The position numbers and the translations under genes are program-made. A DNA stretch of 64,000 nt from an uncultured Actinomycetota bacterium (GTDB lineage: Bacteria > Actinomycetota > Actinomycetes > Streptosporangiales > Streptosporangiaceae). How positions within the stretch are numbered: the first letter of the stretch is position 1; each line of letters starts with the position of its first letter. Shown in pieces: positions 10,627 through 57,714 of the stretch. Where the stretch lies: NCBI GenBank assembly GCA_963727015.1, contig CAVSEV010000012.1, positions 214,131-278,130 of the forward strand, in the 5' to 3' direction. The notes beneath the pieces are model-generated. The model was not told where the DNA came from, made no database searches, and saw only the letters and a program-made list of their open reading frames with translations.

Positions 10627-10631
10627 AGCTG

Positions 10632-21534: not shown

Positions 21535-21590
21535 CCGGATCGGCGCCTGGAGCACCGCCCGCATCCACCAAGATCGACGGGACACATCCT
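21535..21590. repeat. Partial copy (one arm, about 55 bp) of the dispersed MITE-like element
   Basis: CTTGCCGGATCGGCGCCTGGAGCACCGCCCGCATCCACCAAGATCGA matches the right arm of the copies at 41.9, 53.7, 61.3 and 62.9 kb. Confidence 0.5.
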
Positions 21591-24694: not shown

Positions 24695-25060
24695 TCAGCG
24701 GTGGTGATGATCGTGATCGCCGAAGTCACCGCGGTCACCGTGGTCGTGATCGCCGAAGCCACCGTGGTGATGATCGAAATCACCGAAGCCACCGTGGTGA
24801 TGATCGAAATCACCGAAGTCACCGTGGTGATGATCGAAATCACCGAAGTCACCGTGGTGGTCACACCAGTACACGTACGGCCAGTGGCCACACCAGTCGC
24901 GCCAGTGCTCGTGTACCTGAGCCGCATGGACGCTCTGCACAGCGGCGGGCTGGGTCGTTGCCGCACTTGCCATGGTGGACACGCTCATCGCGCCACCGAA
25001 GCCGAGCGCGACAATCGCGGCACTGGTGGCCGCGGCCCGCTTGAACAGCATTCTGGACAT
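24695..25060 (-). CDS. Small secreted histidine/aspartate-rich repeat protein (putative metal-binding)
   Basis: 121 aa. Signal peptide MSRMLFKRAAATSAAIVALGFGGAMSVSTMASA, then HEHWRDWCGHWPYVYWCDHHGDFGDFDHHHGDFGDFDHHHGGFGDFDHHHGGFGDHDHGDRGDFGDHDHHHR. Confidence 0.55.
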   Translation of the reverse strand: MSRMLFKRAAATSAAIVALGFGGAMSVSTMASAATTQPAAVQSVHAAQVHEHWRDWCGHWPYVYWCDHHGDFGDFDHHHGDFGDFDHHHGGFGDFDHHHGGFGDHDHGDRGDFGDHDHHHR

Positions 25061-25069
25061 AGGGTTCCG

Positions 25070-25215
25070 TCCCTTCTGTTATTGGCTGGGGATCCTCTAT
25101 TGGCTGGGGGATCCTCTATTGGCTGGGGACCCTCTATTGGCTGGGGACCCTCTATTGGCTGGGGATCCTCTATTGGCTGGGGATCCTCTATTGGCTGGAG
25201 ATCCTCGGGGTCATG
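25070..25215. repeat. 7 tandem copies of a 21-bp unit (CTATTGGCTGGGGATCCTCT) just upstream of the His-rich protein gene
   Basis: Near-perfect units differing only by G/A, T/C. Located in the promoter region of the minus-strand gene starting at 25060. Confidence 0.85.
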
Positions 25216-25632
25216 CGGCCAGGCCAGCGGAGCGCCATGTCCCTGGTGACCATTGCCCGTGCCCATATCGTCCGTCCCTGACCGGCGATACCACGGCCGG
25301 TCACACTGTGGTGGCGGTGCGGTGGCGCATAAGCAACCACCGCGGCGCGGGCGGCGCCGATGGCAACTCGGGTTGATCGGATCACTGTCGAGTCGTCCCC
25401 CTGTCGGCCGCGAAGGGCTGCCTTGGATCTCAACCGTGGAAGCGCCGTGCGGCGCGTACACGAGACTTCCCGATGGCACTTCAATTCATGCGGTGCGACA
25501 CGCAAAATGTTTACGATTCGTAATCGAAAGAATACGCTTTGCGCTCAATGTCCACCATTTTTTGGGCTGACTTCACCTTGCCCTGACGGCTTTTGAACTT
25601 AGCGCACGACCTATAGAAGTGGCGCCACCACC

Positions 25633-30742: not shown

Positions 30743-33259
30743 TTACTTTAAGTGTGATTCAGTCTGCCCGGCGGCACTTTCGGCCGTGCCCGCCGAGTCG
30801 CCGGCCGAGTCGTCCGCCGGGCCGGCTGGCGGGCCGCCCGCTGGGGCGCCAGCGGTCCTGCCCTTCCATACGCCGCCGCGCCCGGCCCGGTACTGGCGGG
30901 CTGAGTCGAGGGTCATCGCGGCGTACATGAGCGCGACAACCGGCAGCGCCGCCGCACGCAGCGGCGAGAGCCGGTAAAGCCGCAGCACGGGCAGGTAGGT
31001 GACCGCCATGATCAACCAGCCCGCTAGGCCGGAGACGGCGCACCACAACGCGGGCGGGCCACCACCCGCCGCCACGCCGGTCAAGCCAGCGAGCGCCGCG
31101 ACCGGTGGGATCAGGTAGAACCACAGCAGGCCCACGATCGTGCAGCCGAGCAGGGCCGGCGAGTAGCGCAGCTGGTAGTAGGCACTGCGGGTGACCATTT
31201 GCCACAGTTCTGCGAGCCGGGGGTAGGGGCGACGGCTGACGACGGCCGTGCTGAATCCCAGCCAGCACCTGCCGCGCCCGGGCGAACGCTTGATCAGGTG
31301 CCCGAGCGCGACGTCGTCGATCAACGCGCCGCTGATCTGCCGCATCCCGCCCGCGGCCGCGAGCGCCTGACGGCGCACCAGCATGCAGCCCCCGGCCGCC
31401 GCGGCGGTCCGCCCGCCCGGCCGGTTCACCCGCCTGAACGGGTAAAGCTGAGCGAAGAAGTAGACGAACGCGGGCACCAGGGCACGCTCCCAGGCGGTCT
31501 CGGCGCGTAGCAGCGCCATTTGCGAGACCAGGTCGCGCTCATCGCCCACCGCGGCGGTCATCAATGCCGTGAGCGTCCCCTGCCTGTAGGCGATGTCGGC
31601 GTCGGTGAACAGCACGTACTCACTGTCGGGCGCCGCACGGATACCTTGCTCCATGGCCCACACCTTGCCTGCCCAGCCGGCTGGGCGGCGCTCTCCAGCT
31701 ACCACGCGCAGCGGCCGCCGGTGCGGGCCGGCGAGCGCGGCTGCCACCCGGGCCGTGCCGTCAGTGCTGCGATCATCCACCACCAGTACCTCGAGCTTGC
31801 CCGGATAGTCCTGTGCGAGCAGGGTCGGCAGGGTGGCAGGCAGGATCTCGGCCTCGTCGCGCGCGGGGACGACCGCGACGACCGCGGGCCAGCGCGCCGC
31901 GTCCTCGCCGTGCGCGCGCGCCACGTCCACGCCGTCGCGCCCGCCGCGGCGGCGGGGCAGGCGCTGGCCGGTCCGCCAGTAGCCGCCGTGCGCCACCAGC
32001 AGGTATATCCAGGCGACGGCCGCGACGACAGCGGCAGCGGCGAGAACGGGCACCACGCTGCTAGTTAGCGCCTGTCCCGCCGGTCGGGGGGCGCGGCCGG
32101 CCGGTCCCGCAGGTGCGGCCGGCCGGTCGGGGGGCGCGGCCGGCAGGCGGCCGGGGCCCGGGGCGGCTGGCCGCTCGGGTGAGGCGGCGAGGTTCTTCTT
32201 GACCAGATCGAGAATGGTCACGCCCTGGGCGACAAGACCGGCGGCTATCTCACCGAGGCCATCGGAGCCGTTCAGCACGCTCAGGTTGGCGCCGGCCAGA
32301 CCGCCCGCAGCCTCCTTGACGATCTGCGGCAACTGGTCGATGAGCATCCGGTCGAGCGCGACGCGATCGTAGGACGCTGCCGCCTCGGCCTGAACCTTCA
32401 TCCGCTCCGCCTCGGCCTGAGCGAGGATGCGCACCCGCTCAGCGTCCGCTTGCGCGGGCTTCACGACCTCAGCGACCAGTTGCTGCTGGCGCAACTCGGC
32501 CTGACGCTGCGCAAGTTCGGTCTGCGCCGCGATGACCGCGCGCTGGGTGTCCGCCTGGGCGAGCGGACCGGCCTGCGCCGCCTCGGCCTGCGCCTTGTCC
32601 ACCTCCGCCTTGTACTGGGCCTGCACGACAGCCGTCTGGCGCGCATACTCCGCCTGCTTGCGCTGTGACTCCTGCTCGGCCTCGGCCGCCGCCTGGTTGG
32701 CCTGGGCCTGCGCGATCTTCGCCTGCCGCTGGATGGCCGAGACATGCGGGGCGGCCATCGCATCGATGTAGCCGGTCCCCATGTCGTCGATGGACTGGAT
32801 CTGCAGCGAGTCGACGATCAGGCCGATCTTGGCCATCTCGGCCTTCGAGCCATCCAGCACCTCGGTCGCGAGCTTCTGCCGCTCGGTGACGATCTCCTCG
32901 ACGGTCATCGAGCCGATGATCGAGCGCAGGTGCCCGGCGAAGATCCGCCCGGTCAGCACCGACATCTGATCCTGATCGGACAGGAACCGTTGTCCCGCGT
33001 TGACGATGCTCTCCTCGTCGTTGCCGACCTTGAAGGCGATAACAGAACGGACATTCACCGAAATGCCCTGGCCGGTGACGCAGGTTTCCGCGACCTCGGC
33101 CTCACACATGGCCAGGGTCAGGAAGCTTGCCTTGCGGAAGCCGGGGACAACGAAGGCACCATGGCCGGTGACGACCCGGAATGGTGTGCCGTCGCGGCCA
33201 CGCCTGCCGCCGGCGATCAGCATGGCTTCGTCGGGTGCGGGCACGCGGTAACCAAACAT
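30743..33259 (-). CDS. SPFH/band-7 (flotillin-like) domain fused through a Pro/Ala linker and TM helix to a GT2 glycosyltransferase domain
   Basis: 838-aa single ORF. Residues about 1-380 are SPFH plus a flotillin-type coiled coil (KIAQAQANQAAAEAEQESQRKQAEYARQTAVVQAQYKAEVDKAQAEAAQ). Then PERPAAPGPGRLPAAPPDRPAAPAGPAGRAPRPAG, a TM, then GT2 (VVAVVPARDE...VLVVDDRSTDGT...GWAGKVWA...FTDADIAY) and C-terminal TMs. Confidence 0.65.
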   Translation of the reverse strand: MFGYRVPAPDEAMLIAGGRRGRDGTPFRVVTGHGAFVVPGFRKASFLTLAMCEAEVAETCVTGQGISVNVRSVIAFKVGNDEESIVNAGQRFLSDQDQMSVLTGRIFAGHLRSIIGSMTVEEIVTERQKLATEVLDGSKAEMAKIGLIVDSLQIQSIDDMGTGYIDAMAAPHVSAIQRQAKIAQAQANQAAAEAEQESQRKQAEYARQTAVVQAQYKAEVDKAQAEAAQAGPLAQADTQRAVIAAQTELAQRQAELRQQQLVAEVVKPAQADAERVRILAQAEAERMKVQAEAAASYDRVALDRMLIDQLPQIVKEAAGGLAGANLSVLNGSDGLGEIAAGLVAQGVTILDLVKKNLAASPERPAAPGPGRLPAAPPDRPAAPAGPAGRAPRPAGQALTSSVVPVLAAAAVVAAVAWIYLLVAHGGYWRTGQRLPRRRGGRDGVDVARAHGEDAARWPAVVAVVPARDEAEILPATLPTLLAQDYPGKLEVLVVDDRSTDGTARVAAALAGPHRRPLRVVAGERRPAGWAGKVWAMEQGIRAAPDSEYVLFTDADIAYRQGTLTALMTAAVGDERDLVSQMALLRAETAWERALVPAFVYFFAQLYPFRRVNRPGGRTAAAAGGCMLVRRQALAAAGGMRQISGALIDDVALGHLIKRSPGRGRCWLGFSTAVVSRRPYPRLAELWQMVTRSAYYQLRYSPALLGCTIVGLLWFYLIPPVAALAGLTGVAAGGGPPALWCAVSGLAGWLIMAVTYLPVLRLYRLSPLRAAALPVVALMYAAMTLDSARQYRAGRGGVWKGRTAGAPAGGPPAGPADDSAGDSAGTAESAAGQTESHLK

Positions 33260-39961: not shown

Positions 39962-40790
39962 CGCGCCGGCTGGGCAGAGCGAGCGCGGCCAGGTCCGCCG
40001 GGGTGTCCGCATCCGCGGGGTCGCCGATGTCACCGCACTCCACCAGGGTGACAAGCTCGGGGTGAGCGCGCAGGAACGGGCGCGCACCGACATCGCCGAC
40101 CGCACGCTCGATGACCTCGGCCCAGTGCTCGCGGGCGAGTAGCACGGGGTTGCGCGGCACGCCGCGGTACGCGGCGACGACCACGCCCGCGCCGTCCCGG
40201 TGCGCGGCGATCAGCCGCCGCACGGCCTGCGGCCCAACCAGCGGCTGGTCCACGAGGGCGACCACCGCGGCACCTGCCTCGGGTCCTGCGGCGGGTCCTC
40301 GCCGCAGGTCCTGGCGCCGCACCTGCCGCGGGTCCTGGCCCGCCGCACCTGCCGCGGGTCCTGCTGCCGTACCTGCGGCCGCGGGTCCTGCCAAAGGTCC
40401 TGGCGCCGCACCTGCCGCGGCACCTGCCGCAGCGGGAATGGCGCGAAGCCCGGCGGCCAGCGACGAGCCCATGCCGCTGCGCCAGCGGGGATTGTGCGCG
40501 AGGATCACGCCGGCCAGATCCGGTGCCAGACTCACCGCGACGGCGCCGGTCACGACGACCACCGGCGCGGCGCCCCCGTCGCGCAGCATCCGCGCACCAC
40601 GGTCGGCAAGGGGTGCGCCACGGAATTCAGCGAGCGCCTTGGGTTTGCCGAACCTGGCGCCCTGCCCCGCGGCGAGCAGCACCCCGGCAACCGGGGCGGG
40701 CGCGCTCACGGAACCGGCTGCCGATCCCCCGCCTGCTCGTGGTGAATGCGGCCTTCGGTCGACGTCAGCGCCCGGCCAGATCCTCCCCAC
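39900..40790 (-). CDS. MobA-like NTP-transferase (molybdenum cofactor cytidylyltransferase MocA-like) with an internal Ala/Gly/Pro low-complexity insertion
   Basis: VAGVLLAAGQGARFGKPKAL (the LAAGxSxRxG motif) ... VDQPLV. The start is likely near 40690. Residues about 115-160 are (AAGAAPGP)-like repeats encoded by about 20-nt tandem repeats at 40255-40440. Confidence 0.6.
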   Translation of the reverse strand: MGRIWPGADVDRRPHSPRAGGGSAAGSVSAPAPVAGVLLAAGQGARFGKPKALAEFRGAPLADRGARMLRDGGAAPVVVVTGAVAVSLAPDLAGVILAHNPRWRSGMGSSLAAGLRAIPAAAGAAAGAAPGPLAGPAAAGTAAGPAAGAAGQDPRQVRRQDLRRGPAAGPEAGAAVVALVDQPLVGPQAVRRLIAAHRDGAGVVVAAYRGVPRNPVLLAREHWAEVIERAVGDVGARPFLRAHPELVTLVECGDIGDPADADTPADLAALALPSRRVSAAGSQAPRNGPGSDQDPG

Positions 40791-41830
40791 CGCAGCTGGA
40801 TGAGTTCGGCAGCCACGGAGACGGCGGTTTCCTCCGGCGTTCGCGCACCGAGATCGAGCCCGATCGGCGATCGCAGCCTCGCGAGTTCAGCATCGGTCAG
40901 CCCCACTGCACGCAGCCGCTCGAGCCGCTCCGCGTGGGTGCGGCGGCTGCCCATCGCGCCGATGTAGGCGGCGGGTGTCCGCAGCGCCACTTCGAGGACC
41001 GGCACGTCGAACTTGGGGTCGTGGGTGAGCACGCAAATCACCGTGCGCTCGTCCACGGCCGCCCGCTGCAAGAAGCGGTGCGGCCAGTCCACGACGACCT
41101 TGTCGGCGTCTGGGAATCTGGCAGGCGTGGCGAAAACGGGGCGGGCGTCACATACCGTCACGTGGTAGCCGAGGTATTTGCCGATGCTGGCGACCGCGGC
41201 CGCGAAGTCGATCGCCCCGAAAACCACCATCCGCGGCGGCGGAGCGAACGAGTGCACGAAGACGCTCAGCTCATCGGCCCTTCGCTCCCCCTGCGCGCCA
41301 TAATGCCGGATGCCGGTGCGGCCCTGGGCGAGCATGCCACGGGTGTCGTCGTCCACGGCGTCGTCAAGCCGGGCGGGGCCGAGACTGCCGGACGCGCCGT
41401 CCGGCCAAATCACTCTGCGGGCGCCGAGGCTGCCAGGGCCCGCCACGACGGTCGCGACGGCGATGGGCTCGCCCCGCTCCACCGTGGCGGCGATGTCGCC
41501 ATACTCAGGGAAGCGGGACCTGCTCACCGCTTCGACGAAGATCTCCATTATGCCGCCGCAGGTGAGCCCGACGGCGAACGCGTCGTCATCGCTCACGCCA
41601 TAGGTCTGCAGCACGGGTTTGCCACTCGCGCGGACCTCACCGGCCAGTTCGTACACGGCGCCCTCGACGCAGCCGCCCGATACGCTCCCCACCACCTCGC
41701 CCGCCGCCGACACGGCGAGGGCGGCGCCTGGCTCGCGCGGTGCACTACGGAAGGTCCGCACCACGGTGGCGAGGGCAAACGTCTCCCCGGCCTGCCACCA
41801 GTGACCGATTTCGGACATGATGTCGCGCAC
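40706..41830 (-). CDS. XdhC/CoxI-family molybdoenzyme maturation factor
   Basis: 374 aa. FALATVVRTFRSAPREPGAALAV...VVGSVSGGCVE; MVVFGAIDFAAAVASIGKYLGYHVTVCDAR is the Rossmann-like half. Confidence 0.8.
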   Translation of the reverse strand: MRDIMSEIGHWWQAGETFALATVVRTFRSAPREPGAALAVSAAGEVVGSVSGGCVEGAVYELAGEVRASGKPVLQTYGVSDDDAFAVGLTCGGIMEIFVEAVSRSRFPEYGDIAATVERGEPIAVATVVAGPGSLGARRVIWPDGASGSLGPARLDDAVDDDTRGMLAQGRTGIRHYGAQGERRADELSVFVHSFAPPPRMVVFGAIDFAAAVASIGKYLGYHVTVCDARPVFATPARFPDADKVVVDWPHRFLQRAAVDERTVICVLTHDPKFDVPVLEVALRTPAAYIGAMGSRRTHAERLERLRAVGLTDAELARLRSPIGLDLGARTPEETAVSVAAELIQLRWGGSGRALTSTEGRIHHEQAGDRQPVP

Positions 41831-41934
41831 AAACTCAGGTTACGTCCACCGGCACGTCGTTACGATCCCGTTTCGTTGACCGAGCAACTGGCTGGGCGCC
41901 GGTCCGCGCCGCCGAAGATCCACGAACACAAGCC

Positions 41935-42100
41935 TAGAGGGCGTGTCCCGTAGATCTTTGGCGGCGCAGATCGGCGCCAGACGCCGACCGGCGGCGTTGT
42001 CGTCGTCGCCGATAGGTCCAGTATCGGCTCCTCCTCCGCCTTGCCGGATCGCCGCCTGGCTCACCGCCCGCATCCACCAAGATCTACGGGACACGCCCTA
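41935..42100. mobile_element. MITE/REP-like dispersed element, full-length copy B (about 165 bp) with about 24-bp terminal inverted repeats
   Basis: AGGGCGTGTCCCGTAGATCTTTGGCGGCGC...conserved core...GCCCGCATCCACCAAGATCTACGGGACACGCCCT. Intergenic. Confidence 0.6.
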
Positions 42101-42550
42101 ACGGCCAACCTTGGGTTCGCGCGCCTCGCCCCGCTGAGCGATCAGGGCCCGCAACTCCGTCACCGCCTGCCGTGCGTGTTTCCCGTCAGTGGACTGGATG
42201 CCCATCGCGGCCATCGTGGTCCCGTCGGCCAGATCAAGGGTCGGCCACGGCTCGCCAGGTTCCATCCGCGCATCGAGCACCTCCGCCCAGTCAAGCTCGG
42301 TCGTGCGGAGGATATTGACGACGGTGAGCCCGCTGGCCGCGGCGCGAAGCTCGCACCGGCCGAAGAAGTGCAGGGCTACCGCGACGGCGCCGCCGAGGAT
42401 GATCAGCGCCACCCGGTCGGCGACCTGGAAGGTGGGCACGACCAGCGCGACCACCACAATGGCGCCGAGGCTGAGCGCCGCTAGGGCGTGTGGCACCACC
42501 CTCCCCCGCCGGGGCCGCCAGCGCACCGGCAGCCGCTGCGATCCGCTCAT
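42098..42550 (-). CDS. PH-domain-containing membrane-associated protein
   Basis: Start MSGSQRLPVRWRPRRG, then one TM, then a bPH-like region. The listed ORF (to 42829) runs into MITE copy C and is trimmed. Confidence 0.5.
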   Translation of the reverse strand: MSGSQRLPVRWRPRRGRVVPHALAALSLGAIVVVALVVPTFQVADRVALIILGGAVAVALHFFGRCELRAAASGLTVVNILRTTELDWAEVLDARMEPGEPWPTLDLADGTTMAAMGIQSTDGKHARQAVTELRALIAQRGEAREPKVGR

Positions 42551-42771
42551 GAGAGCATCTTCCACCAGGCGCACGCATGGGACGGCACGGCGCCCGGCCA
42601 TGTCGAGGGCGGCGGCTTCCCCGGCCCGCCATCCGGCCCGATCTGGTCCTGCTGGGCCACGAGCTGGCACCTGACACGCCGGCCACCGTCGCGAGCCGTG
42701 GCGCCGTGACCGCCTACCCGCTGCGCCCGCTCCTTGACGAGGCCCTGACCGGTTGAGCGGCAGGGGCGTAG

Positions 42772-42845
42772 TCCCGTAGATCTTTGGCGGCGCGGCAGTG
42801 CTGCCCACGACCCCGCCCGCGTCCACCAAGACGCCCTAGCCCTAC
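42772..42845. mobile_element. MITE/REP-like element, short internally deleted copy C (about 74 bp)
   Basis: GGGCGTAGTCCCGTAGATCTTTGGCGGCGCGG...CGCCCGCGTCCACCAAGACGCCCTAG: both TIRs retained, core missing. Confidence 0.5.
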
Positions 42846-43717
42846 TCGACGATCTTGGAGATCGGGATCTCGAGGATGTCCCGCGCGCCTGCCGCCTTCA
42901 GCGCGGGGATCAGCGTGTTCACCCCGCGCTTGGGCACCACCGTCTCCACCGCGTTCATGTCGCCGCTGGCAAGCGCGGTAATCGTGGGCGAGGACATGGC
43001 GGGGAGCATTTCTGTCACCGCGGCCAGCCTGGAACCAGGCACGTTGAGCTTGAGCAGAACGTTGCCACGGGCCCTGATAGCGCCAGAGAGCAGCAGCGAG
43101 ATGTCCTCCATCGCGGCGCGCTTGCCCGGATCCTCGTACGCGGCAAGGTTGGCGACAAGTTCGGTGTAGCTGGTGAGCAGGATCTCCAGGATGCGCAGGC
43201 CGCTGGCGCGCAGCGAAGATCCGGTCTCGGTCACGTCCACGATCGCGTCCACAATGTCGGGCACCTTGGCCTCAGTTGCACCGTAGGAGGGCACGACCTT
43301 GGCCTTCACCCCGCGCGAGTCAAGGAATCGCCTGGTCAGCGACGGATACTCGGTAGAGATCCGGATTCCCTCTGGCATGTCGGCCGCGGCGTCCCATGAC
43401 GCGTCCTTCTGTACCGCGAGCACGACCCGCACGGGATTGGCGGTGTTCTTGCTATACCGGAGCTCACCCAGGCTGACGACATCGGCGTTGGTCTCAGCGA
43501 TCCAGTCACGGCCGGTGATGCCGAGGTCGAACAGGCCCTGCTCCAGGTAGGAAGGGATCTCTTGCGGGCGCAGGAACCGGACACGATCGATGCGCGGGTC
43601 ATCGATCGACGCGTGGTAGTCACGGTCGGAGCCGCGACGCACCGTGAGATCGGCGGCGTCGAACAGATCGAGTGTCGCTCGCTCGAGCGAGCCCTTGGGG
43701 AGGACGAGGGACAACAT
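42842..43717 (-). CDS. hisG: ATP phosphoribosyltransferase (long form)
   Basis: 291 aa. MLSLVLPKGSLERATLDLF...RFLRPQEIPSYLEQGLFDLGITGRDW. Confidence 0.9.
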   Translation of the reverse strand: MLSLVLPKGSLERATLDLFDAADLTVRRGSDRDYHASIDDPRIDRVRFLRPQEIPSYLEQGLFDLGITGRDWIAETNADVVSLGELRYSKNTANPVRVVLAVQKDASWDAAADMPEGIRISTEYPSLTRRFLDSRGVKAKVVPSYGATEAKVPDIVDAIVDVTETGSSLRASGLRILEILLTSYTELVANLAAYEDPGKRAAMEDISLLLSGAIRARGNVLLKLNVPGSRLAAVTEMLPAMSSPTITALASGDMNAVETVVPKRGVNTLIPALKAAGARDILEIPISKIVE

Positions 43718-43784: not shown

Positions 43785-45903
<2,119 letters not shown>

Positions 45904-45907
<4 letters not shown>

Positions 45908-46560
45908 CGCTGGCTCCCGTCGAGCAGCTTCTCCACGTACTTGGCGACGATGTCGGCCTCCAGGTTGACCGTGTCGCCTGGCTGTTTACGGCCGAGAGTG
46001 GTCTGCTCGAGGGTGACAGGGATCAAGCTGACCTCGAACCACGGATCGCCGCGCTCATGTTCCGCTGAGTGCTGGCCTGCCAGCTCGCCGACGCCGGATA
46101 CGGTGAGGCTCACCCCGTCGACCGCGACGGATCCCTTCTCCGCGACGTAACGCGCCAAGCCGTAAGGGAGCATGATCCGTACCACCTCCCAGTGCCGCGC
46201 CGGGGTCCTGGCGGCGATGCGGCCGATCCCGTCCACGTGGCCCTGCACGAGATGGCCGCCGAAGCGGTCGGCAGCGCGGAGGGGGCGCTCGAGATTGACG
46301 CGCGCACCAGCAGTGAGGGCCCCGATACCCGAGCGCAGGAGCGTCTCGCCCATCACATCCGCGGTGAACGCGCCATCGCCGCTGGCGGTCACGGTGAGGC
46401 ATACGCCGTTTACGGCGATCGAGTCGCCGCGGGTGGCACCCGCCACCACCTTCGGGCCCTTCACGGTGAGCCGCGCGGCGCCCTCACGTCGCTCGAGGGC
46501 GACGACCTCGCCAAGCTCTTCCACGATTCCGGTGAACATCTGCGGCACCCTCCGGAGCAT
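45904..46560 (-). CDS. ribE: Riboflavin synthase alpha subunit
   Basis: [12 protein letters not shown]...[13 protein letters not shown] repeated twice (lumazine-binding repeats). Confidence 0.9.
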
Positions 46561-46619: not shown

Positions 46620-46765
46620 CACGCCCGCGTGCTGCCTCCCATCCGGACTTTCACCGTCGGTACCGGAATTTCGCCGGTTCAGCCGGCCGATGGCATCGGC
46701 CGGGTCGCGGACTGTAACCGCCGGTTCGGAGTTACACCGACCCCGGAGCACGCTTCTGCTTTAAC
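46620..46765 (-). ncRNA. FMN riboswitch (RFN element) upstream of ribE-ribBA-ribH
   Basis: Minus-strand sequence ...CCGGGGTCGGTGTAACTCCGAACCGGCGGTTACAGTCCGCGACCCGGCCGATGCCATCGGCCGGCTGAACCGGCGAAATTCCGGTACCGACGGTGAAAGTCCGGATGGGAGGCAGC. This matches the conserved RFN core blocks (GGTGnAAnTCC...CCGGCGGT...AGTCCGCGAC...CCGACnGTGAAAGTCnGGATGGGAG). Confidence 0.75.
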
Positions 46766-48868: not shown

Positions 48869-50521
48869 TCACGTGTCACGGCGTAGCAGGGCGAGGAAGA
48901 TCGCGTCGGTTCCGTGCCTGTGCGGCCAGAACTGCGCGTAGCCACCAGGACCGGCAGGTCGAGGACCGGCAGGTCCAGGACCGGCAGGTCCAGGACCGGC
49001 AGGTCGAGGACCGGCAGGCCGAGAACCGGCAGGCCGAGAACCGGCGGGTCCAGGACCGGCAGGTCGAAGAGCGCCAGGACCAAGATCGGTGCCACCTGTC
49101 AGGGCAGCATGGCCGGGGGGGCAGCGCAGGCCCTCGGCGGCCAGCCCCGCCGCACCCGCGGCAGGCACCCCGGCCAGAACCGCGGGCGCGTCAAGCACGC
49201 TGACGCCTGCCGTGGCGGCCATATCGCTGATGACATCCTCGACCACGCGGCGGGTCTCGTCGAGATGGGGCGAGCAGGTGACGTAGGCGACCACCCCGCC
49301 CGGCCGCACCGAGGCGAGCGCGGTCGCGAGCAGCCGGCGCTGCAGCGGGCCGAACCCCGCGACGTCCCGTGGCCTGCGCCGCCAGCGCGCCTCGGGGCGG
49401 CGGCGCAGCGCACCAAGCCCCGAGCAGGGAACGTCGGCGAGCACCCGGTCGAACCTGCCATCCCGCCACGGCGGCGAAGTTCCGTCGGCCACCACGATCC
49501 GCCCCGCGCCGCCAGCACTCGCGACCGCACGCGCGGGCCCGCCCGCGGCCGCGCCCCCCATCGCGGCCCTGGCCAGTGCCGCGCGGTGTGGCTGCAGGTC
49601 GGCCGCGATAAGGCGGGCGTTCCGCCCCGCTGCGAGCCCGGCGAGCAGGCTGGCCTTGCCGCCCGGCCCCGAGCACATGTCTAGCCAGAGCCGGTCCGGG
49701 CCGGTGACAGGGACACCCGCGAGCGCGGCCGCCGCCAGTTGGCTGGCCTCGTCCTGAACTGCCGCCCTGCCGTCGGCCACGGCCGGAACGTCCGCCGGGT
49801 TTCCTTCCCTCAGGTAAGCGCCGTATGGTGACCACCGCGCCGGTGTCGCGCCCGCCGCGAGGAGTTCGCCAGGCACGACCCGGCCTGGCTTGGCGAGCAG
49901 GGTGACCCCCGGGCGGCTGTTGTCGGCCGCGAGCAGCGCCGCCGTTTCTGTGAGCGGACCATCCCGCTGCTCGCCGAGCGCGTCGGACAGCGCCGCCACA
50001 ACCCAGCGCGGGTGGCTGTGCATGACGGCAAGATGACCGACAGGGTCGTCGGCGGGCTCGGGCGCCACGATCGCGAGCCAGCCAGCAAGGTCACGCGTCG
50101 CGACCCGGCGCAAGACCGCGTTCACGAAACCGGCTGGCCGCACACCTGCCACATCCTTGGCCAGGTCAACGCTGGCCGCGACGGCGGCGTGCGGCGGGAT
50201 CCTGGTGGCGAGCAACTGGTGCGCGCCGAGGCGCAGTACGTCGCGCACGCCCGGGTCGATTCTGCCGACCGGCCGGTCCGAGCAGACATCGATCACCGCG
50301 TCATAGCTTCCCTGGCCGCGCAGCGTCCCGTAGGTCAGTTCGGTGGCGAGCGCGGCGTCCCGGCCAGCCAGGCCGCGCTCGGCAATCAGGGCAGGAAGCA
50401 GCAGGTTGGCGTAGGCATCTCGCTGCGCCACCGCACGCAGCACGTCGTACGCTGTACGCCGCGCCGGGTCGGCCCGCCGCCTCGTCCCAGGTCCGGCCAC
50501 GTCAGCCCAGCCGCTCGGCAC
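48869..50521 (-). CDS. rsmB: 16S rRNA m5C967 methyltransferase RsmB/Sun with an in-frame ([10 protein letters not shown])-type pentapeptide repeat insertion near the C-terminus
   Basis: NusB-like N-domain, then [15 protein letters not shown] (SAM motif), [13 protein letters not shown] (catalytic Cys). About 55-aa PAGPG repeat block encoded by 15-nt tandem repeats at 48935-49075, just before the conserved tail [21 protein letters not shown]. Confidence 0.85.
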
Positions 50522-51446
50522 CGGAAAGCCGCAGCCCGCGCACCCATTCGATGGCGGGCATAGCCCGCTTCCCCTCCGGCCGTACCTCGCCGAGCGTGAC
50601 GGGCCCGGTGCCGGTACCCGCGAGCACGTCGTCGCGTCCGACGCTCAGCTCGCCGGGCGCCAGCGCGGTGAGCTGAGCGGACGCGAGGCTGACCGGGCCG
50701 ATCTTGACGCGCGTGCCGCCAAATATGGTCCACGCGCCCGGATTCGGGGTAGCCGCCCGGATGAGCCTGTCCACCGCCAGTGCGCTGCGGGCCCAGTCCA
50801 CCTGGGCATCCGCTGGTGTGATCTTGGGCGCGTGGCTGACCCCATCCGCCGGCTGCGGGCGGGCCACCACCTCACCGGACTCGATCCCGTCCAGCGTGGC
50901 CACGAGCAGATCCGCGCCTGCCACGGCGAGCCGGGCCAGCAGATCGCCCGCTGTATCCGCCGGCTGGACCTGCTCAGTCACCACCCCGAACACCGGGCCG
51001 GCGTCGAGTTCCTCGACGAGCAAGAACGTGGTCGCACCTGTGATGTCGTCCCCGTGCAGGATCGCGTGCTGCACCGGCGCCGCACCACGCCAGGCGGGCA
51101 GCAGGGAGAAGTGCAGATTCACCCAGCCGCGGGCCGGAATGTCGAGCGCCGCCCTGGGCAGCAGCGCTCCGTATGCGACGACGGGACAGCAGTCGGGGCC
51201 GATCTGCCTGAGCCTGTCGAGGAACGGCGGGTCACGCGGCTTCACCGGGGTGAGCACCTCAAGACCGGCCGCCCGCGCCCGGGCGGCAACAGGGCTGGGC
51301 GTGACCCGCCTGCCGCCGGCGGAGCGGCCGCGCCCGGCAGGGGCGTCGGGCCTGGTGACCACCGCGGCCACCTCGTGCCGCGAGCCGAGCAGCGCGTCCA
51401 GCGCCGGCACCGCCGCCGGTGGGGTGCCCGCGAACACCAGCCGCAT
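50502..51446 (-). CDS. fmt: Methionyl-tRNA formyltransferase
   Basis: [20 protein letters not shown]...[22 protein letters not shown]. Confidence 0.9.
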
Positions 51447-51450: not shown

Positions 51451-51996
51451 CTACAGCGCCTTACCCAAAGTCGGGTGCGGTGACGCCTTGACCGCGGGCA
51501 CCGATTCGCCGAACCATTCGGCCTCCCTGATCGCCTTCATCGCGAGCTTGCGCTGCTCCGGGTCGAGCTTGTCGATGAACAGCACGCCGTCAAGGTGGTC
51601 GGTCTCGTGCTGTGCGCAGCGGGCGAGCAGCGCCGTACCCTCCAGGGTGATCGGCTCACCGTGCATGTTGAAGCCCTTGGCCACGGCGCGCAGCGCCCTT
51701 GTCGTCGGGAAGGCGAGGCCGGGGATGGATAGGCAGCCCTCATCCCCGGTTTCCTGCTCGTCGGACAGGTCGAGGGAGGGGTTGATCAGATGGCCGAGAT
51801 CATCCTCGACGTGGTAGGTGAAGACCCGCAGGCCGACGCCGATCTGTGGTGCTGCTAGCCCGGTACCGGGCGCGTCAAGCATCGTCTCGGTGAGATCTTT
51901 GACCAGCCTGCGGAGCTCGGCGTCGAAATCACGGACCGGCTCGGCTGGGGTGCGCAGCACCGGGTCGCCAAAAAGTCGGATCGGCTTGACGGCCAC
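51451..51996 (-). CDS. def: Peptide deformylase
   Basis: [24 protein letters not shown]: the three PDF motifs. Confidence 0.9.
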
Positions 51997-52141: not shown

Positions 52142-53497
52142 TCAGCGGACGCGGCCGGCGCCGAGATACCGTGATCGCGCCTTGAACGCGGCCTTCCGCG
52201 CTGCCTTGGCGACACCCGGATCGGGGTGGTGCTCCGTCAGCGTGCTGAGCAGAGTGATCAGATCGGGGTGGCAGACCTGCCAAAGGCCACCGACCAGTTC
52301 GGCCTGCTCGGCAGCGGGCAGATCTGGCAGCAGTTCAGGCGCGACGGCGCTGGGATCGGCCTCCTCAAGCAGCCCGGCTCCGAGGTCGACAAGCAGCCAG
52401 GCCTTCTCCGCCGGTGTCAGGTCGGCGTGCACGCCTAGCTCGCGCAGCCAGATGGCGGCGTGCGGGCGAAGCACCGGGTCGGCGAGTGCCGACCGCACGA
52501 ACGGGATCACTTGCTCACCGAGGCGATCGATGATGGCGAACGCGGCGCCGCGCGCGCCAGGCGAGGACGTGCTCGCCGCATCGAGAAGCTCGGCCGCGGC
52601 CCGCTGCGGCGTGCGCCCGGCAAGCCAAGCGGCGATCTCAAGTTCACCATCCTCGGCGTCGTAGCCTGCCAGGCCCTCGAGCAGGCCGGCCGCACCCGCG
52701 GCCGCGGCGCAGCCCAGGATCGGCGCGGAGAATCCTACCGCGATCAGCCGGTCGCGCATCCCTGCCACGCCGAGCGCGGTCAGGGCCACGGTGAGCTGAT
52801 CGTCCTGCTCGTCAACGCCGAGTTCGGCCACGCCAAGATCGGCCAGCACCTCGAGTGCCTGTGACATCCGCGCACCCGGATCGGCTTCAGCACCGCGCGG
52901 CCGGGCTGTGCGGCCGGGCGCCGTGGCGGTCGCGGCGGTCGCGGCGGTGAACGCCTCCGCGAGCGCATCCATCCGTACCGGCGAGCCGGCCGCGTACAGC
53001 ACGGTCGCCAGGCCCTCGAGTTCCTCCCGCACATCAATGGGGCCACAGCAAAGCACCGCGTCAAGCGCGCCGCGCCAACCAGCGAGCAGCCCGGCGGGGT
53101 CGCCGTTGCGCAGCGCGTCCGTACGCGCCGATGCCCGGTTGCCGGTGATCGTGACGAGCCCGGCGCCGACCGCCGCGTGCCAGAGCAGATCGAGTTCCCG
53201 CACATCGCTGGCGCTGCGCAGGCCGCCGCGGGCGGCGGGCGCCTCGCCGCCGCCGGTTATCTCAAGATCAGCGATGACGGCGGCCGCGTCGGCAAGCCGG
53301 AGCAGCCCGCGCGCGGTCAGCCGCCTGCTGGCACCCACCCAGCGGGCAAGCTGCCAGGCCTCGCGCAGCAGCGGCGCCGCGAGCACGGCGGCGGCGAGCT
53401 CGTGCGCCGGCGCCATCCGTACCGCGGGCAGCACCAGACCAGCGCCGCCCGCCGCCTGTGCGCGTGGCGGGCGGGTGAGTGACGCCCTTCGGCCCAC
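52142..53497 (-). CDS. Hypothetical protein (Ala/Leu-rich, 451 aa)
   Basis: Single long minus-strand ORF between def and priA. No recognisable motifs. Confidence 0.45.
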   Translation of the reverse strand: MGRRASLTRPPRAQAAGGAGLVLPAVRMAPAHELAAAVLAAPLLREAWQLARWVGASRRLTARGLLRLADAAAVIADLEITGGGEAPAARGGLRSASDVRELDLLWHAAVGAGLVTITGNRASARTDALRNGDPAGLLAGWRGALDAVLCCGPIDVREELEGLATVLYAAGSPVRMDALAEAFTAATAATATAPGRTARPRGAEADPGARMSQALEVLADLGVAELGVDEQDDQLTVALTALGVAGMRDRLIAVGFSAPILGCAAAAGAAGLLEGLAGYDAEDGELEIAAWLAGRTPQRAAAELLDAASTSSPGARGAAFAIIDRLGEQVIPFVRSALADPVLRPHAAIWLRELGVHADLTPAEKAWLLVDLGAGLLEEADPSAVAPELLPDLPAAEQAELVGGLWQVCHPDLITLLSTLTEHHPDPGVAKAARKAAFKARSRYLGAGRVR

Positions 53498-53680: not shown

Positions 53681-54100
53681 GGTGGCCTTAGAGGGCATCT
53701 GATCTAGTGGATCAGATGCCCTCTTTGGGCGTAGTAGATCGATCTTGGTGGATGCGGGCGGTGCTCCAGGCGGCGATCCGGCAAGGCCCTGCTTGTTCTC
53801 GAGGAGCCGATAGTGGAACCATCGGCGACGACGACAGTGCCGCCGGTGACCCCGGTCGTCGTCTGGGATCGTGGGCGGCATTGCCGCGCGGCCAAAGATC
53901 CACGGGACATGCCCTCTAGTGGTCTGTCAGAGTGGTCTTCTTTGGCTCTGTGGCCCACGACAACGCCCATTGCGGGCACCTCGCGGCGTTGTCGTCGTTG
54001 CGCGTAGCACCAGCTACGCGCTCCTCCTCCGCCTTGCGATGCACCCACTTGGACGCCGTTCGCTCAAAGGACCCCTCTGACAGACCACTAGACCGCCCTG
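53681..54100. mobile_element. Cluster of three MITE/REP-like elements: a 35-bp solo-hairpin copy, full copy D (reverse orientation) and a diverged third copy flanked by a 17-bp perfect inverted repeat
   Basis: 53683-53717 AGAGGGCATCTGATCtagtgGATCAGATGCCCTCT (TIR-TIR only). 53725-53912 GGGCGTAGTAGATCGATCTTGGTGGATGCGGG...core...CCGCGCGGCCAAAGATCCACGGGACATGCCC. 53915-54098 CTAGTGGTCTGTCAGAG...diverged core...CTCTGACAGACCACTAG. Confidence 0.55.
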
Positions 54101-54103: not shown

Positions 54104-56164
54104 TCAAATCAGCTCGAGCGGATCGATCTGCACGCGCAGCCGTTCGGGATCCCTGCGGGCGCACCGTGCGGCCTGCGCCTCGGCAAGGGCGCGAGCGAGC
54201 TGCGTGCCCGCCGGCCGCGGCACCCGCACGAGCAGACGGTTCTGCTCGCCTTCCACCGGCCGGTCATGGCTGACAGGAACGGGGACGGGCCCGAGAACCT
54301 CCGCGCCACCCGGCAGCCTGACGTCGGCAAGCAGCTTGCGCAGGGCCTCGGCGCTACCAGTGACGGACGCCATCCGGACAGCGGGCGGGAAACCCAGCTC
54401 CGCCCGGTCGGCAAGCTCGCGCTGCGCGTGGGTGACTGGATCCCAGCGGATGAGCGCCTGGACCTGGCGCAGCCCCGCGTCTGCGAGCACCACCACGATG
54501 CCACCGCCGGTGCGCGGCCGGACAAGGGCGGTGGCGTTCATCCACCTGCGCAGCGCCTCCTCTCCCGCCCGCAGGTCGGCGCGGCCGGCCAAGGCATGCG
54601 CGTCAAGCAGGAGCGCCGCGGCGTAACCGGCCTCCGCGGCCGGTTCTGCGCCCGGGGTCGCGACCACGAGCGCCGGCGTCGCAGGCACGCTGACCAGCCG
54701 TGCGTCGCCGCCCGACAGCCGGACGGCCGCGCCAGGGAACGCGCGACCGAGTTCCTCCGCGGTCCGCCTGGCACCGGTGACGAGGGCACGGATTTCGGTG
54801 GCCTCGCACCGCGGGCAGCGCCAGCCTGCCGCCACGCGGCCGCACCACCTGCAATGCGCGGCAGCGCCGGAGGATTCGAGCGCAAGCGGGCCGCCGCAGC
54901 CCGCGCAGCGGGCCTGCTCGCGGCACCGTGCGCAGCCGATCGCCGCCAGGTACCCGCGCCTTGGCACCTGGACGAGCACCGGGCCACGTGCCAGCGCGTC
55001 TCTGGCCACCCGCAGGGCCACGCTCGGCAGCCTGGCCGCCCTGGCTGCCTCGTCCCTGGCAAGCTCGCTGTCGTCACCTGCCGCGCGGATCGCGGGCAGC
55101 AGCCGGCGCACCTCCACCCGGTCGGCGCGGAGTGTGCGGGCCCAACCGGCCTCAACGAGTTGCGTCATCTCCGCCGTGCGGGAAAAGCCGCCGATCAAAG
55201 CGGCAGCGCCGCAGCGATGCGCGCGCAGCGCGAGCACCTCGCGCGCGTGCGGGTAGGGTGCGCGCCGTTCTGCGTGCAGATCGTCGCCGTCGTCCCAGAG
55301 GACGACCAGGCCGAGGTCACGCACAGGGGCGAACATCGCGGCCCGGGTGCCAGCGACGACACGCACGTCGCCGCGAGCCGCCGCGAGCCAGCGCTTGTAC
55401 CGCTGCGCCGGGCCCAGGTCGGCGCTCAGGGCGACGTGCCGGCCGGATCCGAGCTCCGAGGTGAGCGCGGCGTCGACGCGCGCCAGGTCCGCGGCCGCTG
55501 GCACCACCACAACGGCGCCGCGGCCGGCGCCCGCCGCGGCTGCGGCCGCGACCGCGATGGCCCGCGGCCAGCCCTGACCTGGCAGCGCCGACCACGCGGC
55601 GCGGGGACCGTGGCCGGCCGCGACTGCCGCGAGGAACGCGGCACCGGTGGGATAGCGCGCCCATGGGCCAGGGTGAGGGACCGCGCGCGCTCCGTATCCG
55701 CCGTTGGCTCCGTGCCCCGCGCTCGGCGGCGCCAGCTCATGGGAGACGGAGGATGGCCGCGCCTCCGCTGCCGCGTGCCGCGGCGGGATCGCGAGCCTCA
55801 GGACGTCGGCAAGGGTACCCGCGTAGTGATCGGCGACCGCCCGGGCGAGCCCGGCGACCTCGGCTGTGAGCACCGGCTCGGGGGACACGACCCGCTCGAG
55901 GAAGGCGAGCCTGCCGGAGTGGGTGCTGCTTGCCGCGCGCTCGAGCAGGTAGCCGTCGGTGAGCTTGCCCGCGAATCTGACCCGGACCCGGGATCCGGGC
56001 ACGGCCGCGCCCGCGAACCGCTCGGGCACCAGATAGTCGAACGGGCGGTCGAGGTGGGTGAGCGGCACGTCAACGGCTACCCGTGCGACCGGCAACTCCG
56101 CGGCCTGTGTGCGCGCGGCCGGCTTGCGCGGCTGACGTCGCCTGGCTGGCATTACCTGAGGCAC
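54104..56164 (-). CDS. priA: Primosomal protein N' (replication-restart helicase PriA)
   Basis: 686 aa. N-terminal 3'-DNA-binding domain, helicase core, Cys4 zinc-binding insert (CARCREQARCAGCGGPL...CRWCGRV...CPRC), C-terminal domain. Confidence 0.85.
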   Translation of the reverse strand: MPQVMPARRRQPRKPAARTQAAELPVARVAVDVPLTHLDRPFDYLVPERFAGAAVPGSRVRVRFAGKLTDGYLLERAASSTHSGRLAFLERVVSPEPVLTAEVAGLARAVADHYAGTLADVLRLAIPPRHAAAEARPSSVSHELAPPSAGHGANGGYGARAVPHPGPWARYPTGAAFLAAVAAGHGPRAAWSALPGQGWPRAIAVAAAAAAGAGRGAVVVVPAAADLARVDAALTSELGSGRHVALSADLGPAQRYKRWLAAARGDVRVVAGTRAAMFAPVRDLGLVVLWDDGDDLHAERRAPYPHAREVLALRAHRCGAAALIGGFSRTAEMTQLVEAGWARTLRADRVEVRRLLPAIRAAGDDSELARDEAARAARLPSVALRVARDALARGPVLVQVPRRGYLAAIGCARCREQARCAGCGGPLALESSGAAAHCRWCGRVAAGWRCPRCEATEIRALVTGARRTAEELGRAFPGAAVRLSGGDARLVSVPATPALVVATPGAEPAAEAGYAAALLLDAHALAGRADLRAGEEALRRWMNATALVRPRTGGGIVVVLADAGLRQVQALIRWDPVTHAQRELADRAELGFPPAVRMASVTGSAEALRKLLADVRLPGGAEVLGPVPVPVSHDRPVEGEQNRLLVRVPRPAGTQLARALAEAQAARCARRDPERLRVQIDPLELI

Positions 56165-56289: not shown

Positions 56290-56470
56290 GAATGCGCGGC
56301 ATCTGTGCAATCGAAACTTCGGGCACTCGAAACCTCGGGCACTCGAAACTTCGGGCACTCGGAAACTTCGGGCACTGGAAAACTTCGGGCAATCGAAACT
56401 GCGGGCAATCGAAACTGCGGGCAATCGAAACTCGGGCAATCGAAACTCGGGCAATCGAAACTGCGGCGGC
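56290..56470. repeat. About 10 tandem copies of a 17-18-bp unit (ACTCGAAACTTCGGGC, then AATCGAAACTGCGGGC variants) between priA and the PAS gene
   Basis: Two sub-families of units in tandem. AT-richer than surroundings. Confidence 0.8.
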
Positions 56471-56523: not shown

Positions 56524-57714
56524 TCAGTCTTGCTTCGCCGACGCGGCCTTCTGCAGCTGATCTTGGTTCTCATCAACAGGGTCAGCAGTGCCCTCGCTGC
56601 CAGGAGTGTCAATGCGGTCCATGATCAGGATCACCCCGTGGATCATCCCGTCCTCGCCGCGGAGCAGGCTGCACGCCACCCGCAGCTGCACAGGCCGGCC
56701 CCGCCGGTTGACGGCGTCGACTGTCGCATCACTGCCCTCTGCCCGCTCGGTAAGCATCCGCTGTAGCAGCGGCACGATCTGCTGCACAGGCAGGCCGATA
56801 TCGAGCGTGAGCAGGTGCCTGCCGTCCGCCTCGTCCGCGCGAAGCCCCCACAGCTCCTCGGCGCCTGGGCTCCACACCCGCACCCGCAGATCCTCATTCA
56901 CCACGATGACCGCGCTGCCAAGGCTGCGAAGCACGGAGCCGAGAAATCCGTTCGCCGCGTCGAGCTGCTCGGTCCGCACGCGCAACACGTCGTTGATCGC
57001 CTGCAGCTCGTCGTTAGTCGACTGCAGTTCCTCGTTCATCGTCTCGAGTTCCTCGTTAGTGGACTGCAGTTCCTCGTTTGTGGTCTCGAGTTCCTCGTTA
57101 GTGGACTGCAGTTCCTCGTTGGTCGTCTCCAGCTCCTCGTTCAGCGACTGCAGCTCTTCGTAGGCCCGCTCGAGATCCTGGTTGGAGCGCTCAAGTTCGT
57201 CCCGCAGCCTGCGGTTACGTGTCACGTCGACGAAGCTGATCCCGACGCCGACCAGTTCGTCCGCGTCGCTCACGAGCGGGACGACCGCGACGTCGAGCAC
57301 CGCGGGCTCTGCGCCCAGGCCTCGGTGCCAGGTCACGTCGGTCAGCTCGACGGCGCGCTTGTCCTTCTTCACCTGTTCGATCACCGACCGGAGCTCTATC
57401 GGGCGGTACGAGACCTCGAGATCTTGAAACAGCCTGCCCACATCGCGCGCGTGCAGGTTAAACAGGTTCCCGGCGCGAACGTTGACCACCGCGAGCTTGC
57501 CCGCCTGGTCTATTGCGAACTGCGCGACGGGCCCGGCGGCAAGCGCCGCGGCCTCGAGCCCGGCTGGGGCCGAACTGCTCGTCGGTGCCGTACTGCGCCG
57601 CTGCCCGCGGGACGTCGCCCGGGCCCACGCCCGGAATCTTACGGAACAGGCGCTTGCGCAGGTCGACCGGTTCGAACCGGTCGCCGTGATTGAGCAGCAT
57701 CTCGGCCTTGCCAA
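56524..57714 (-). CDS. PAS, coiled-coil (EELQSTNEELETTNEEL heptads), PAS protein; 5' end overlaps the CheR gene by about 250 nt (possible frameshifted CheR-PAS fusion)
   Basis: PAS1 from about 57570 (LAAGPVAQFAIDQAGKLAVVNVRAGNLFNLHARDVGRLFQDL). Then NEELQS/NEELET repeats, then PAS2 (LRSLGSAVIVVNEDLRVRVWSPGAEELWGL). No start codon between the CheR stop (57458) and PAS1 except the ORF start at 57714. Confidence 0.6.
   Translation of the reverse strand: MARPRCCSITATGSNRSTCASACSVRFRAWARATSRGQRRSTAPTSSSAPAGLEAAALAAGPVAQFAIDQAGKLAVVNVRAGNLFNLHARDVGRLFQDLEVSYRPIELRSVIEQVKKDKRAVELTDVTWHRGLGAEPAVLDVAVVPLVSDADELVGVGISFVDVTRNRRLRDELERSNQDLERAYEELQSLNEELETTNEELQSTNEELETTNEELQSTNEELETMNEELQSTNDELQAINDVLRVRTEQLDAANGFLGSVLRSLGSAVIVVNEDLRVRVWSPGAEELWGLRADEADGRHLLTLDIGLPVQQIVPLLQRMLTERAEGSDATVDAVNRRGRPVQLRVACSLLRGEDGMIHGVILIMDRIDTPGSEGTADPVDENQDQLQKAASAKQD

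Follow-up and report, generated by a model that had tools for sequence, protein, structure and literature searches.

A TA-inserting miniature transposable element, probably mobilized by an IS5-family transposase, in uncultured Actinomycetota

The 64-kb stretch of actinobacterial DNA that we analyzed (the window; 69.7% G+C) contains repeated copies of a small element, including a 166-nt unit at positions 41935 to 42100, one end of which (GGGCGTGTCCCGTAGATCTT) pairs perfectly with the other (AAGATCTACGGGACACGCCC). We think it likely that these repeats are a bacterial miniature inverted-repeat transposable element (MITE) that inserts at TA, that is probably mobilized by a transposase of the IS5 family (the IS427 type, which has two open reading frames, or ORFs), and that is nearly neutral after insertion. 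The elements are 160 to 195 bp of non-coding DNA with no transposase. They have terminal inverted repeats of 19 to 27 nt (degenerate in copies B and C), occur as many dispersed copies, and are flanked by a duplicated TA, as seen by comparing filled and empty sites; also, their insertions are polymorphic between close relatives. These properties agree with half of the label in the initial annotation of this DNA, which had called the repeats MITE-like or REP-like (that is, resembling repetitive extragenic palindromes). The REP-like half does not fit, because a target duplication is made. Bacterial MITEs of 100 to 200 bp, with TA termini and with transcripts that form long stem-loops, are a well-documented kind of element (PMC2229807). 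In the literature, we found no described actinobacterial MITE of a comparable kind. The family is new, and its host lineage has no cultured representative among the matches listed.

Copies in the window were located by blastn and by a profile search with nhmmer, and the sequences were then read and aligned. Each copy is oriented by its core, GGTGGATGCGGGCGG, and the strand given for it is the one on which the core is found. In the window there are four full copies (A to D), four fragments or miniatures (E, F, H, and I), and one copy from a sister family (G) (Table 1). The 166-nt unit is copy A together with the TA on either side. The terminal repeats of copies A and D are both perfect, with lengths of 19 to 21 nt, and between the two copies, 3 positions of the repeats differ, at both ends. 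Fragment I, which abuts copy A, was detected by blastn (41924 to 41895, at 87% identity) and by nhmmer (41893 to 41925).

The initial annotation had listed copies near 21535, 41935, 42772, 61281, and 62845, and three more within 53681 to 54100, all with a common core and all intergenic. We found related sequence at every one of these coordinates, using blastn, nhmmer, and alignment; the core is indeed shared, and Pfam hits for the flanking ORFs confirm that all of the window copies are intergenic. However, several of the listed copies are not what they were taken to be: the one at 21535 is a one-arm fragment of 63 nt (E), the one at 42772 is internally deleted (F), and the three elements within 53681 to 54100 are a mini-palindrome (H), a full copy (B), and a member of a different family (G). 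Also, the spacer that was described as def-priA is really between priA and an unnamed ORF of 451 amino acids, with def one gene further away.

Across 64 distinct copies, the consensus is TA-GGGCGTGTCCCGYRGATCT ... AGATCYRCGGGACACGCCC-TA. The flanking TA is present at the left end of 42 of the 64 copies and at the right end of 39 of them, and outside this TA the flanks continue with Y (left) and R (right), so that they read YTA...TAR. The initial annotation had called for a check for target-site duplications; comparing filled and empty orthologous sites shows that the TA is duplicated upon insertion. First, locus L198 is filled and reads CGGGCC-TA-element-TA-AGAGTCC, while locus L185 is empty and reads CGGGCC-TG-AGAGCC. 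Second, the site of copy G reads GGTC-TA-(copy G)-TA-GAGGGCATG in the window and GGTC-TA-GGGCATG in locus L227, where it is empty. We also considered a 4-bp duplication of CTAG, but the outer flanking bases are often unequal (TTAG...CTAG or CTAG...CTAA), and the L198/L185 pair fits a duplication of TA only.

Syntenic loci show that the element has moved recently enough to differ between close relatives. Homologues of MetK led us to three such loci of 21 kb each: L227 (98% identical), L228 (95%), and L229 (94%). At the site of copy D, in the spacer between coaBC and metK, L227 is empty, no copy was found in L228, and L229 has a copy elsewhere in the spacer. The site of copy C, at the stop codon of metK, is filled in the window, filled by a half-deleted copy in L227, and empty in both L228 (where the stop codon is TGA) and L229 (ATC TAG GCC). 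The window itself has an empty site at 32058 to 32119 (containing TAGTTAG); the corresponding site in a metagenome contig that is 87 to 92% identical is filled (L195:2514-2702). So copies have been gained and lost between genomes whose MetK proteins are 94 to 98% identical, and because the states of these sites differ between relatives, the element has been moving over the time in which these genomes diverged. Copy B has an intact ortholog in L227 (20264 to 20457), so it is an older, shared insertion.

Three short strings near these sites look like scars: TAGCTA (63025 to 63030, to the left of copy D), TAGGGCTA (42837 to 42844, between hisG and copy F), and TAGTTAG (32062 to 32068, in the empty site). 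Each resembles a TA, a few terminal bases of the element, and another TA, as would be left after cut-and-paste excision. At the site of copy D, the window has 4 extra bases relative to L227.

Many of the insertions are at stop codons. In 46 of 63 copies, an ORF with high G+C at third codon positions ends within 40 nt of a terminus of the element, and in about half of all copies, the flanking TA and the first G of the element form the TAG stop codon of that ORF. In the window, the TA and first G of copy A are the stop codon of a bPH-domain gene, and the TA at 61463 to 61464 and C61462 (a G on the metK strand) are the stop codon of metK; copy D lies 4 nt past the stop codon of coaBC (63028 to 63030), and copy F is 5 nt away from that of hisG (42842 to 42844), with TAGGGCTA in between. 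Relative to the gene whose stop codon was targeted, copies are randomly oriented, with 29 co-directional and 25 antisense. Since there is a G at both ends of the element, TAG is regenerated from a TAA or TAG stop codon in either orientation, as the L198/L185 pair displays. The rebuilt stop codon leaves the host's protein as it was, and this accounts for the position of copies right at the 3' ends of housekeeping genes. In DNA with 70% G+C, stop codons supply a large part of the YTAR sites, and harmful insertions are removed by selection; together, these are sufficient to explain the distribution of the copies. More broadly, the restoration of TAG shows how an element that targets TA can colonize a genome with 70% G+C without harm.

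To find copies outside the window, we scanned species-representative genomes and metagenome contigs, once each, and then ran a profile search of the fetched loci; the counts are lower bounds. There are at least 89 near-full copies in other genomes and metagenomes. The mode of their lengths is a class of 160 to 168 nt, to which copy A belongs; a second class, with copies B, C, and D, spans 176 to 197 nt. Among the matches listed, true copies occur only in uncultured (soil) Actinomycetota. The hosts include metagenome-assembled genomes (MAGs) that are labeled as Streptosporangiaceae or Mycobacteriales, and several are MAGs of the Microflora Danica type (with MFD isolate names). Large MAG contigs encode proteins with 100%, 98%, and 93 to 95% identity to the window's MetK, and the named near relatives are "Streptosporangiaceae bacterium." A plasmid collection gave a single match, of 64 nt at 82%, in a Streptomyces plasmid.

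About 100 database clusters of 45-amino-acid "hypothetical proteins" without any domain turned out to be ORFs that were called within copies of the element. We rejected this micro-ORF (MRAVIQAA...) as a gene: there are 40 synonymous and 107 non-synonymous variants, substitutions are spread evenly across codon positions, and single-base indels shift the frame between copies. The element thus accounts for these spurious proteins, and it also flags intergenic hairpins that are likely to confuse the prediction of terminators or small RNAs.

The sister family (G-type) has a different terminal repeat, TA-GTGGTCTGTCAGAG, and a homologous central module. Its second known copy is at L012:4034-4205, and both known copies adjoin a copy of the main family. 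The main MITE family, which is abundant, and its sister had not been described before; MAGs are the only record of their hosts, uncultured soil actinobacteria.

Which transposase might move the element? We provisionally assign the MITE to the IS5 family, based on the sequence of its tips: the first 8 to 11 nt of four IS5-family elements from relatives equal the tip of the MITE and its subfamily variants (GGGCG, GGGCC, and GGCCG), with a common tip of GGSCSTGT(C/T)T. The lead came from L229:9399-9629, which is an internally deleted insertion sequence (IS) of 231 bp. It is inserted in the stop codon of coaBC and shares a TA with the adjoining copy of the MITE. Its remaining ORF encodes an N-terminal peptide of DUF4096 (E = 4e-17), and its repeats, GGTCGTGTCTCAAAGT and GGGCCTGTCTCAAAGT, are flanked by TA and have the tip GGKCSTGTCTC. 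Full relatives of this remnant have frameshifted OrfA (DUF4096) and OrfB (DDE_Tnp_1) and score as NCBIfam transpos_IS5_3. The other three elements are in L232 (from a sample shared with L227), with ends TA-GGGCCTGTTTTAAAAG...CAGGCCC-TA and tip GGGCCTGT; in L230, with end TA-GGCCGTGCTT and tip GGCCGTG; and in L237, with end TA-GGGCGTGTTTCAAAAG and tip GGGCGTGT. The IS5-family elements of relatives also duplicate TA, which is the length of duplication seen in the IS427 group. Elements of that group are about 830 to 865 bp long and have two frameshifted ORFs and a 2-bp duplication (PMC3281130). The MITE resembles IS427-group elements such as IS1248 and ISPpa2 in its 2-bp duplication, and its tip, GGSCSTGT, is common to the local copies in L229, L230, L232, and L237. 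However, the MITE lacks a transposase, and its interior is a long hairpin instead of the two ends of a known IS. Past nt 11, the terminal repeat of the MITE (CCCGYRGATCT) is unlike that of every autonomous copy examined.

We rejected several candidates for the parent IS. Pairs of ends that are 0.3 to 4 kb apart proved to be two separate copies around ordinary genes (for example, around a penicillin-binding protein in L137), and orphan ends proved to be truncated copies. No recurrent ORF family was found among the related loci. Near metK, L227 contains a DDE_5 IS (L227:12100-13910) that encodes a transposase of 497 amino acids, but its ends, ATTACAGTCA, are unrelated to those of the MITE. This IS lies downstream of metK, is absent from the window, and is adjoined by an 18-nt tandem array (GGCGATAACAGAGATAGC).

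The whole element is one long imperfect palindrome that folds as a single hairpin, so complementarity is not limited to the 22 to 30 bp at its ends, as had been annotated. The minimum free energy of the core strand is -118.9 kcal/mol for copy A (z = -10.9; the plus strand gives -93.9), -124.4 kcal/mol for copy D (z = -8.6), and -103.1 kcal/mol for copy G of the sister family (z = -10.1), all of which are intact. The older and eroded copies C and B have energies of -94.2 kcal/mol (z = -3.7, a moderate gain over shuffled sequence) and -88.4 kcal/mol (z = -1.07, which is no better than for shuffled sequence). The left ends of B and C are degenerate, and many copies have mismatches of the G.U type, which contradicts the claim that the terminal repeats always pair perfectly within a copy.

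We analyzed covariation across 42 aligned copies of the short class, using a consensus structure from RNAalifold with 62 pairs. In this alignment, 97.6% of cells were paired, versus 94.2 ± 0.2% in shuffles, and none of 500 shuffles reached the observed value. Both sides had changed in 20 of the 62 pairs (6.4 expected) and in 76 cells (10.1 expected). As a control, sliding the partners by 1 to 3 columns gave just 35 to 45% pairing. The double changes concentrate at positions 3 to 5 and 10 of the tip (alignment columns 5 to 7 and 12), as in GGGCG/CGCCC, GGCCG/CGGCC, GGGTG/CACCC, GGGCC/GGCCC, GGGGG/CCCCC, and GGCAG/CTGCC. The central stem-loop covaries as well (CCGATA/TATCGG, CCAATA/TATTGG, CCCATA/TATGGG, and CGAATA/TATTCG). 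The initial annotation was therefore right that the terminal repeats differ between copies with compensation, but this covariation of the arms is a property of the family and is not valid for every copy.

The pairing also differs between the strands. On the core strand, non-Watson-Crick combinations were G.U in 294 cells of 37 pairs and A.C in 14 cells of 13 pairs. For variants seen in a single copy, 18 pairs had G.U and 12 had A.C; for variants seen in two or more copies, these numbers were 19 and 1. Six G.U pairs are fixed. The opposite strand had 86.8% of cells paired, as compared to the 97.6% for the core strand, and when folded as RNA, the core strand was the more stable one in 61 of 61 copies, with a mean advantage of 27.5 kcal/mol. 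(For copy A, DNA parameters gave -61.8 versus -56.4 kcal/mol.) This suggests that only variants that retained the hairpin on the core strand were amplified or retained, although the counts are not independent, so the evidence from strand asymmetry is suggestive only.

Within the hairpin, the covarying central stem is enclosed by an internal loop of conserved sequence (GGCGGAGGAGGAG / CGACGACGACAACGCC), and the G-type family has the same loop despite its other ends and outer arms. GATCT is present in 42 of the 42 aligned copies, and its partner, AGATC, has one or two substitutions; the neighboring positions vary. Each arm holds a GTAG/GTGG motif. At two other loci (L005:850-920 and L111:880-960), the loop motif GGAGGAGGAG has expanded to long (GGA)n or (GGAGAA)n microsatellites.

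These patterns raise the question of whether the element is a functional structured RNA, such as a terminator in the 3' untranslated region, an mRNA stabilizer, a target of RNase III, or a precursor of a small RNA, with mobility as a means of delivery only. We consider this unlikely. The strong covariation of the arms and of the central stem-loop would fit, as would the placement of copies directly past stop codons, the greater stability of the core strand in every copy, and the conserved loop that is shared by a family with other arms; effects at the RNA level have also been documented for Correia and ERIC elements (PMC2229807). However, because orientation is random, half of the copies would be transcribed as the weaker strand. 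Older copies decay (B folds no better than chance, and C lacks its left end, with half of this copy deleted in L227), and copies are absent from close relatives. As for termination, no run of T follows the hairpin of any copy in the window, as read from the sequence. The initial annotation had proposed a search of Rfam; this gave no family at the copies, just generic hairpins of microRNA precursors that scored far below threshold. The persistence of G.U mismatches on one strand would also be expected of a functional RNA, but G.U pairs that are common to many copies were inherited and represent few events. Overall, we found no evidence of function beyond selfish spread.

The initial annotation took covariation to imply selection on a long stem (RNA or cruciform) and not on primary sequence, which holds only in part. 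The covariation of the central stem-loop and the tolerance of G.U on one strand do point that way. The use of both orientations and the decay of older copies argue against a role of the RNA for the host, and the tips of autonomous elements vary too. In particular, among autonomous IS5-family copies, the tip positions that vary are matched between both ends in L230 and L232 and are unmatched in the L229 remnant, so some of the matching between ends reflects the transposon family itself. Complementary double changes would also arise without selection if quasi-palindromes were corrected from a template. Recognition of the ends by a transposase, for its part, cannot explain the covariation of the central stem-loop or the bias towards G.U.

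Another way to account for a strand-specific hairpin is a REPIN-like element that moves as single-stranded DNA via a tyrosine transposase of the HUH or RAYT type (RAYT standing for REP-associated tyrosine transposase). REPINs are likewise abundant extragenic hairpins in which compensatory changes on both sides are common (PMC3116915), and the GTAG/GTGG motif in each arm is also in keeping with this idea. But REPINs, like IS200/IS605-type elements, make no target duplication, and they depend on a single-copy tyrosine transposase, whereas our comparison of filled and empty sites shows that TA is duplicated, the ends of the MITE resemble those of IS5-family DDE elements, and the MITE exceeds the usual length of REP doublets. 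Among the sequences examined, which did not include a search of a complete genome, there was no RAYT gene. We view a REPIN-like origin as very improbable.

A less specific idea, which we consider doubtful but more than a formality, is that the family depends on a hairpin of one strand, as RNA or as single-stranded DNA. This could be a strand-specific single-stranded intermediate in amplification, which would be new for IS5-type elements, or a portable functional module. In the latter case, the candidate would be the loop GGCGGAGGAGGAG / CGACGACGACAACGCC around its covarying stem, which is common to two MITE families with unrelated ends and could act in a transcript or as a binding site for a protein. 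If they are real, the strand-biased pairing and the shared central module would bear on whether the hairpins of MITEs are selected or merely tolerated.

Returning to a TA-inserting MITE of the IS5 family, our data show that the element inserts at TA, usually in a YTAR context, and duplicates it; the copies are probably mobilized in trans, by a DDE transposase of two-ORF IS427-group type. The arms could stay complementary if amplification is limited to copies whose ends match and whose hairpin is intact, or if templated repair corrects quasi-palindromes; a useful RNA at each locus would not be the reason. An inserted copy would be close to neutral and would then decay. Several observations count against this account. 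First, searches of 1.5 Mb of related loci, of viral contigs, and of protein clusters revealed no autonomous element that has the whole terminal repeat and could be the parent. Second, the assignment to the IS5 family is based on the similarity of the tips to those of a handful of local IS copies. Third, neither the strong strand asymmetry (G.U tolerated and A.C not) nor covariation in a central stem-loop that is far from the ends is predicted by the classical double-strand DDE mechanism. Fourth, the account does not explain why the sequence of an internal loop is conserved and recurs in a second family with other ends. Finally, duplication of TA in a CTAG-like target is also typical of IS630/Tc1-mariner elements.

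This last point is the classical signature of IS630, and the MITE might instead derive from, and be mobilized by, an IS630/Tc1-mariner transposase. Besides the TA duplication and the YTAR target, which is CTAG-like, the footprint-like strings beside copies (TAGCTA and TAGGGCTA) resemble the scars of cut-and-paste transposition. There is also a precedent: RUP of Streptococcus pneumoniae is a MITE that was assigned to its partner, IS630-Spn1, by the similarity of terminal repeats and by TA targets (PMC2229807), an argument of the same form as ours. RUP is 107 bp long, and whereas its partner is an IS630 element, the tip of our MITE matches the IS5 family: the terminal 8 to 11 nt match four TA-duplicating IS5-family elements of relatives, and no IS630-type element (DDE_3) was seen in any of the related loci. 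An IS630 origin seems improbable to us, though it is a live alternative.

Other MITEs offer further parallels. Correia elements (NEMIS) of Neisseria and ERIC elements (IRU) of enterobacteria are likewise intergenic, 100 to 200 bp long, with terminal inverted repeats, TA termini, and a transcript that forms one stem-loop (PMC2229807). However, our elements are from a different phylum, have no sequence similarity to them and no evident site for IHF, target stop codons and restore TAG, and have a parent family that looks like IS5. Beyond bacteria, there is an analogy in plants. The PIF/Harbinger transposases are eukaryotic relatives of IS5, and the Tourist MITEs of plants target TWA, which contains TA. 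The ends of Tourist elements (GGCCTTGTT... and GGGCCTGTTT...) resemble the tip GGGCCTGT of our MITE, but Tourist elements are eukaryotic and have a 3-bp duplication. We know of no report of covariation across the whole hairpin for Tourist.

Table 1. Repeat elements and nearby genes in the 64-kb window.
Feature	Positions	Strand	Description
Fragment E	21527-21589	minus	63 nt, left arm only (core and one terminal repeat); followed by TA at 21590-21591
XdhC-like gene	40706-41830	minus	Pfam
Fragment I	41893-41934	plus	Right-arm end of another copy (GCGCCGCCGAAGATCCACGAACAC...); meets A at common TA
Copy A	41937-42098	minus	Short (160-nt) class, intact; TA at 41935-41936 and 42099-42100
bPH-domain gene	42098-42829	minus	Pfam
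Copy F	42763-42836	minus	Internally deleted: both ends retained, center gone
hisG	42842-43717	minus	Pfam
fmt	50502-51446	minus	Pfam
def	51451-51996	minus	Pfam
Unnamed 451-aa ORF	52142-53497	minus	Flanking ORF
Element H	53691-53723		33-nt mini-palindrome, two ends only (GAGGGCATCTGATC ... GATCAGATGCCCTC); TA at 53689-53690
Copy B	53726-53916	plus	Long class; left end degenerate
Copy G	53919-54088	minus	Sister family; TA at 53917-53918 and 54089-54090; sits in TA beside B
priA	54104-56164	minus	Pfam
Copy C	61280-61462	plus	Long class; left end eroded; TA at 61463-61464
metK	61462-62655	minus	Pfam
Copy D	62845-63024	minus	Long class, intact; perfect 19-nt terminal repeat GGGCATGTCTCGCAGATCT
coaBC	63028-63996	minus	Pfam

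An ORF of 133 amino acids (21511 to 21912, plus strand) reads through fragment E. It has an AGGAGG-like ribosome-binding site and no match in Pfam. This ORF could be spurious; alternatively, a fragment of the MITE may have supplied the start of a gene.

Elsewhere in the window, an FMN riboswitch at 46625 to 46755 (minus strand) scored 93 bits, versus a gathering threshold of 66 bits; it is the sole Rfam family that passed its threshold in the window. No tRNA or tmRNA was found in the window.

The window is also unusually rich in short tandem repeats with periods of 9, 15, 18, or 21 nt, which are multiples of three; these are apparently within ORFs that encode low-complexity repeat proteins. 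They are at 10269 to 10490, 14709 to 15303, 15892 to 16292, 23049 to 23519 (about 26 repeats of an 18-nt unit), 24708 to 24889, 25070 to 25224, 45723 to 45911, 48917 to 49119, 56948 to 57199, 58593 to 58709, and 60169 to 60298. Just upstream of the start codon of priA, at 56298 to 56446, is an array with a period of 16 nt (AAACTTCGGGCACTCG); since 16 is not divisible by three, this array probably does not encode protein. Finally, a proline-rich repeat region contains two pairs of direct repeats of about 300 nt (9819 to 10118 with 10817 to 11116, and 10387 to 10685 with 11451 to 11749). The members of each pair are 82 to 86% identical and about 1 kb apart, as if part of a gene had been duplicated in tandem.

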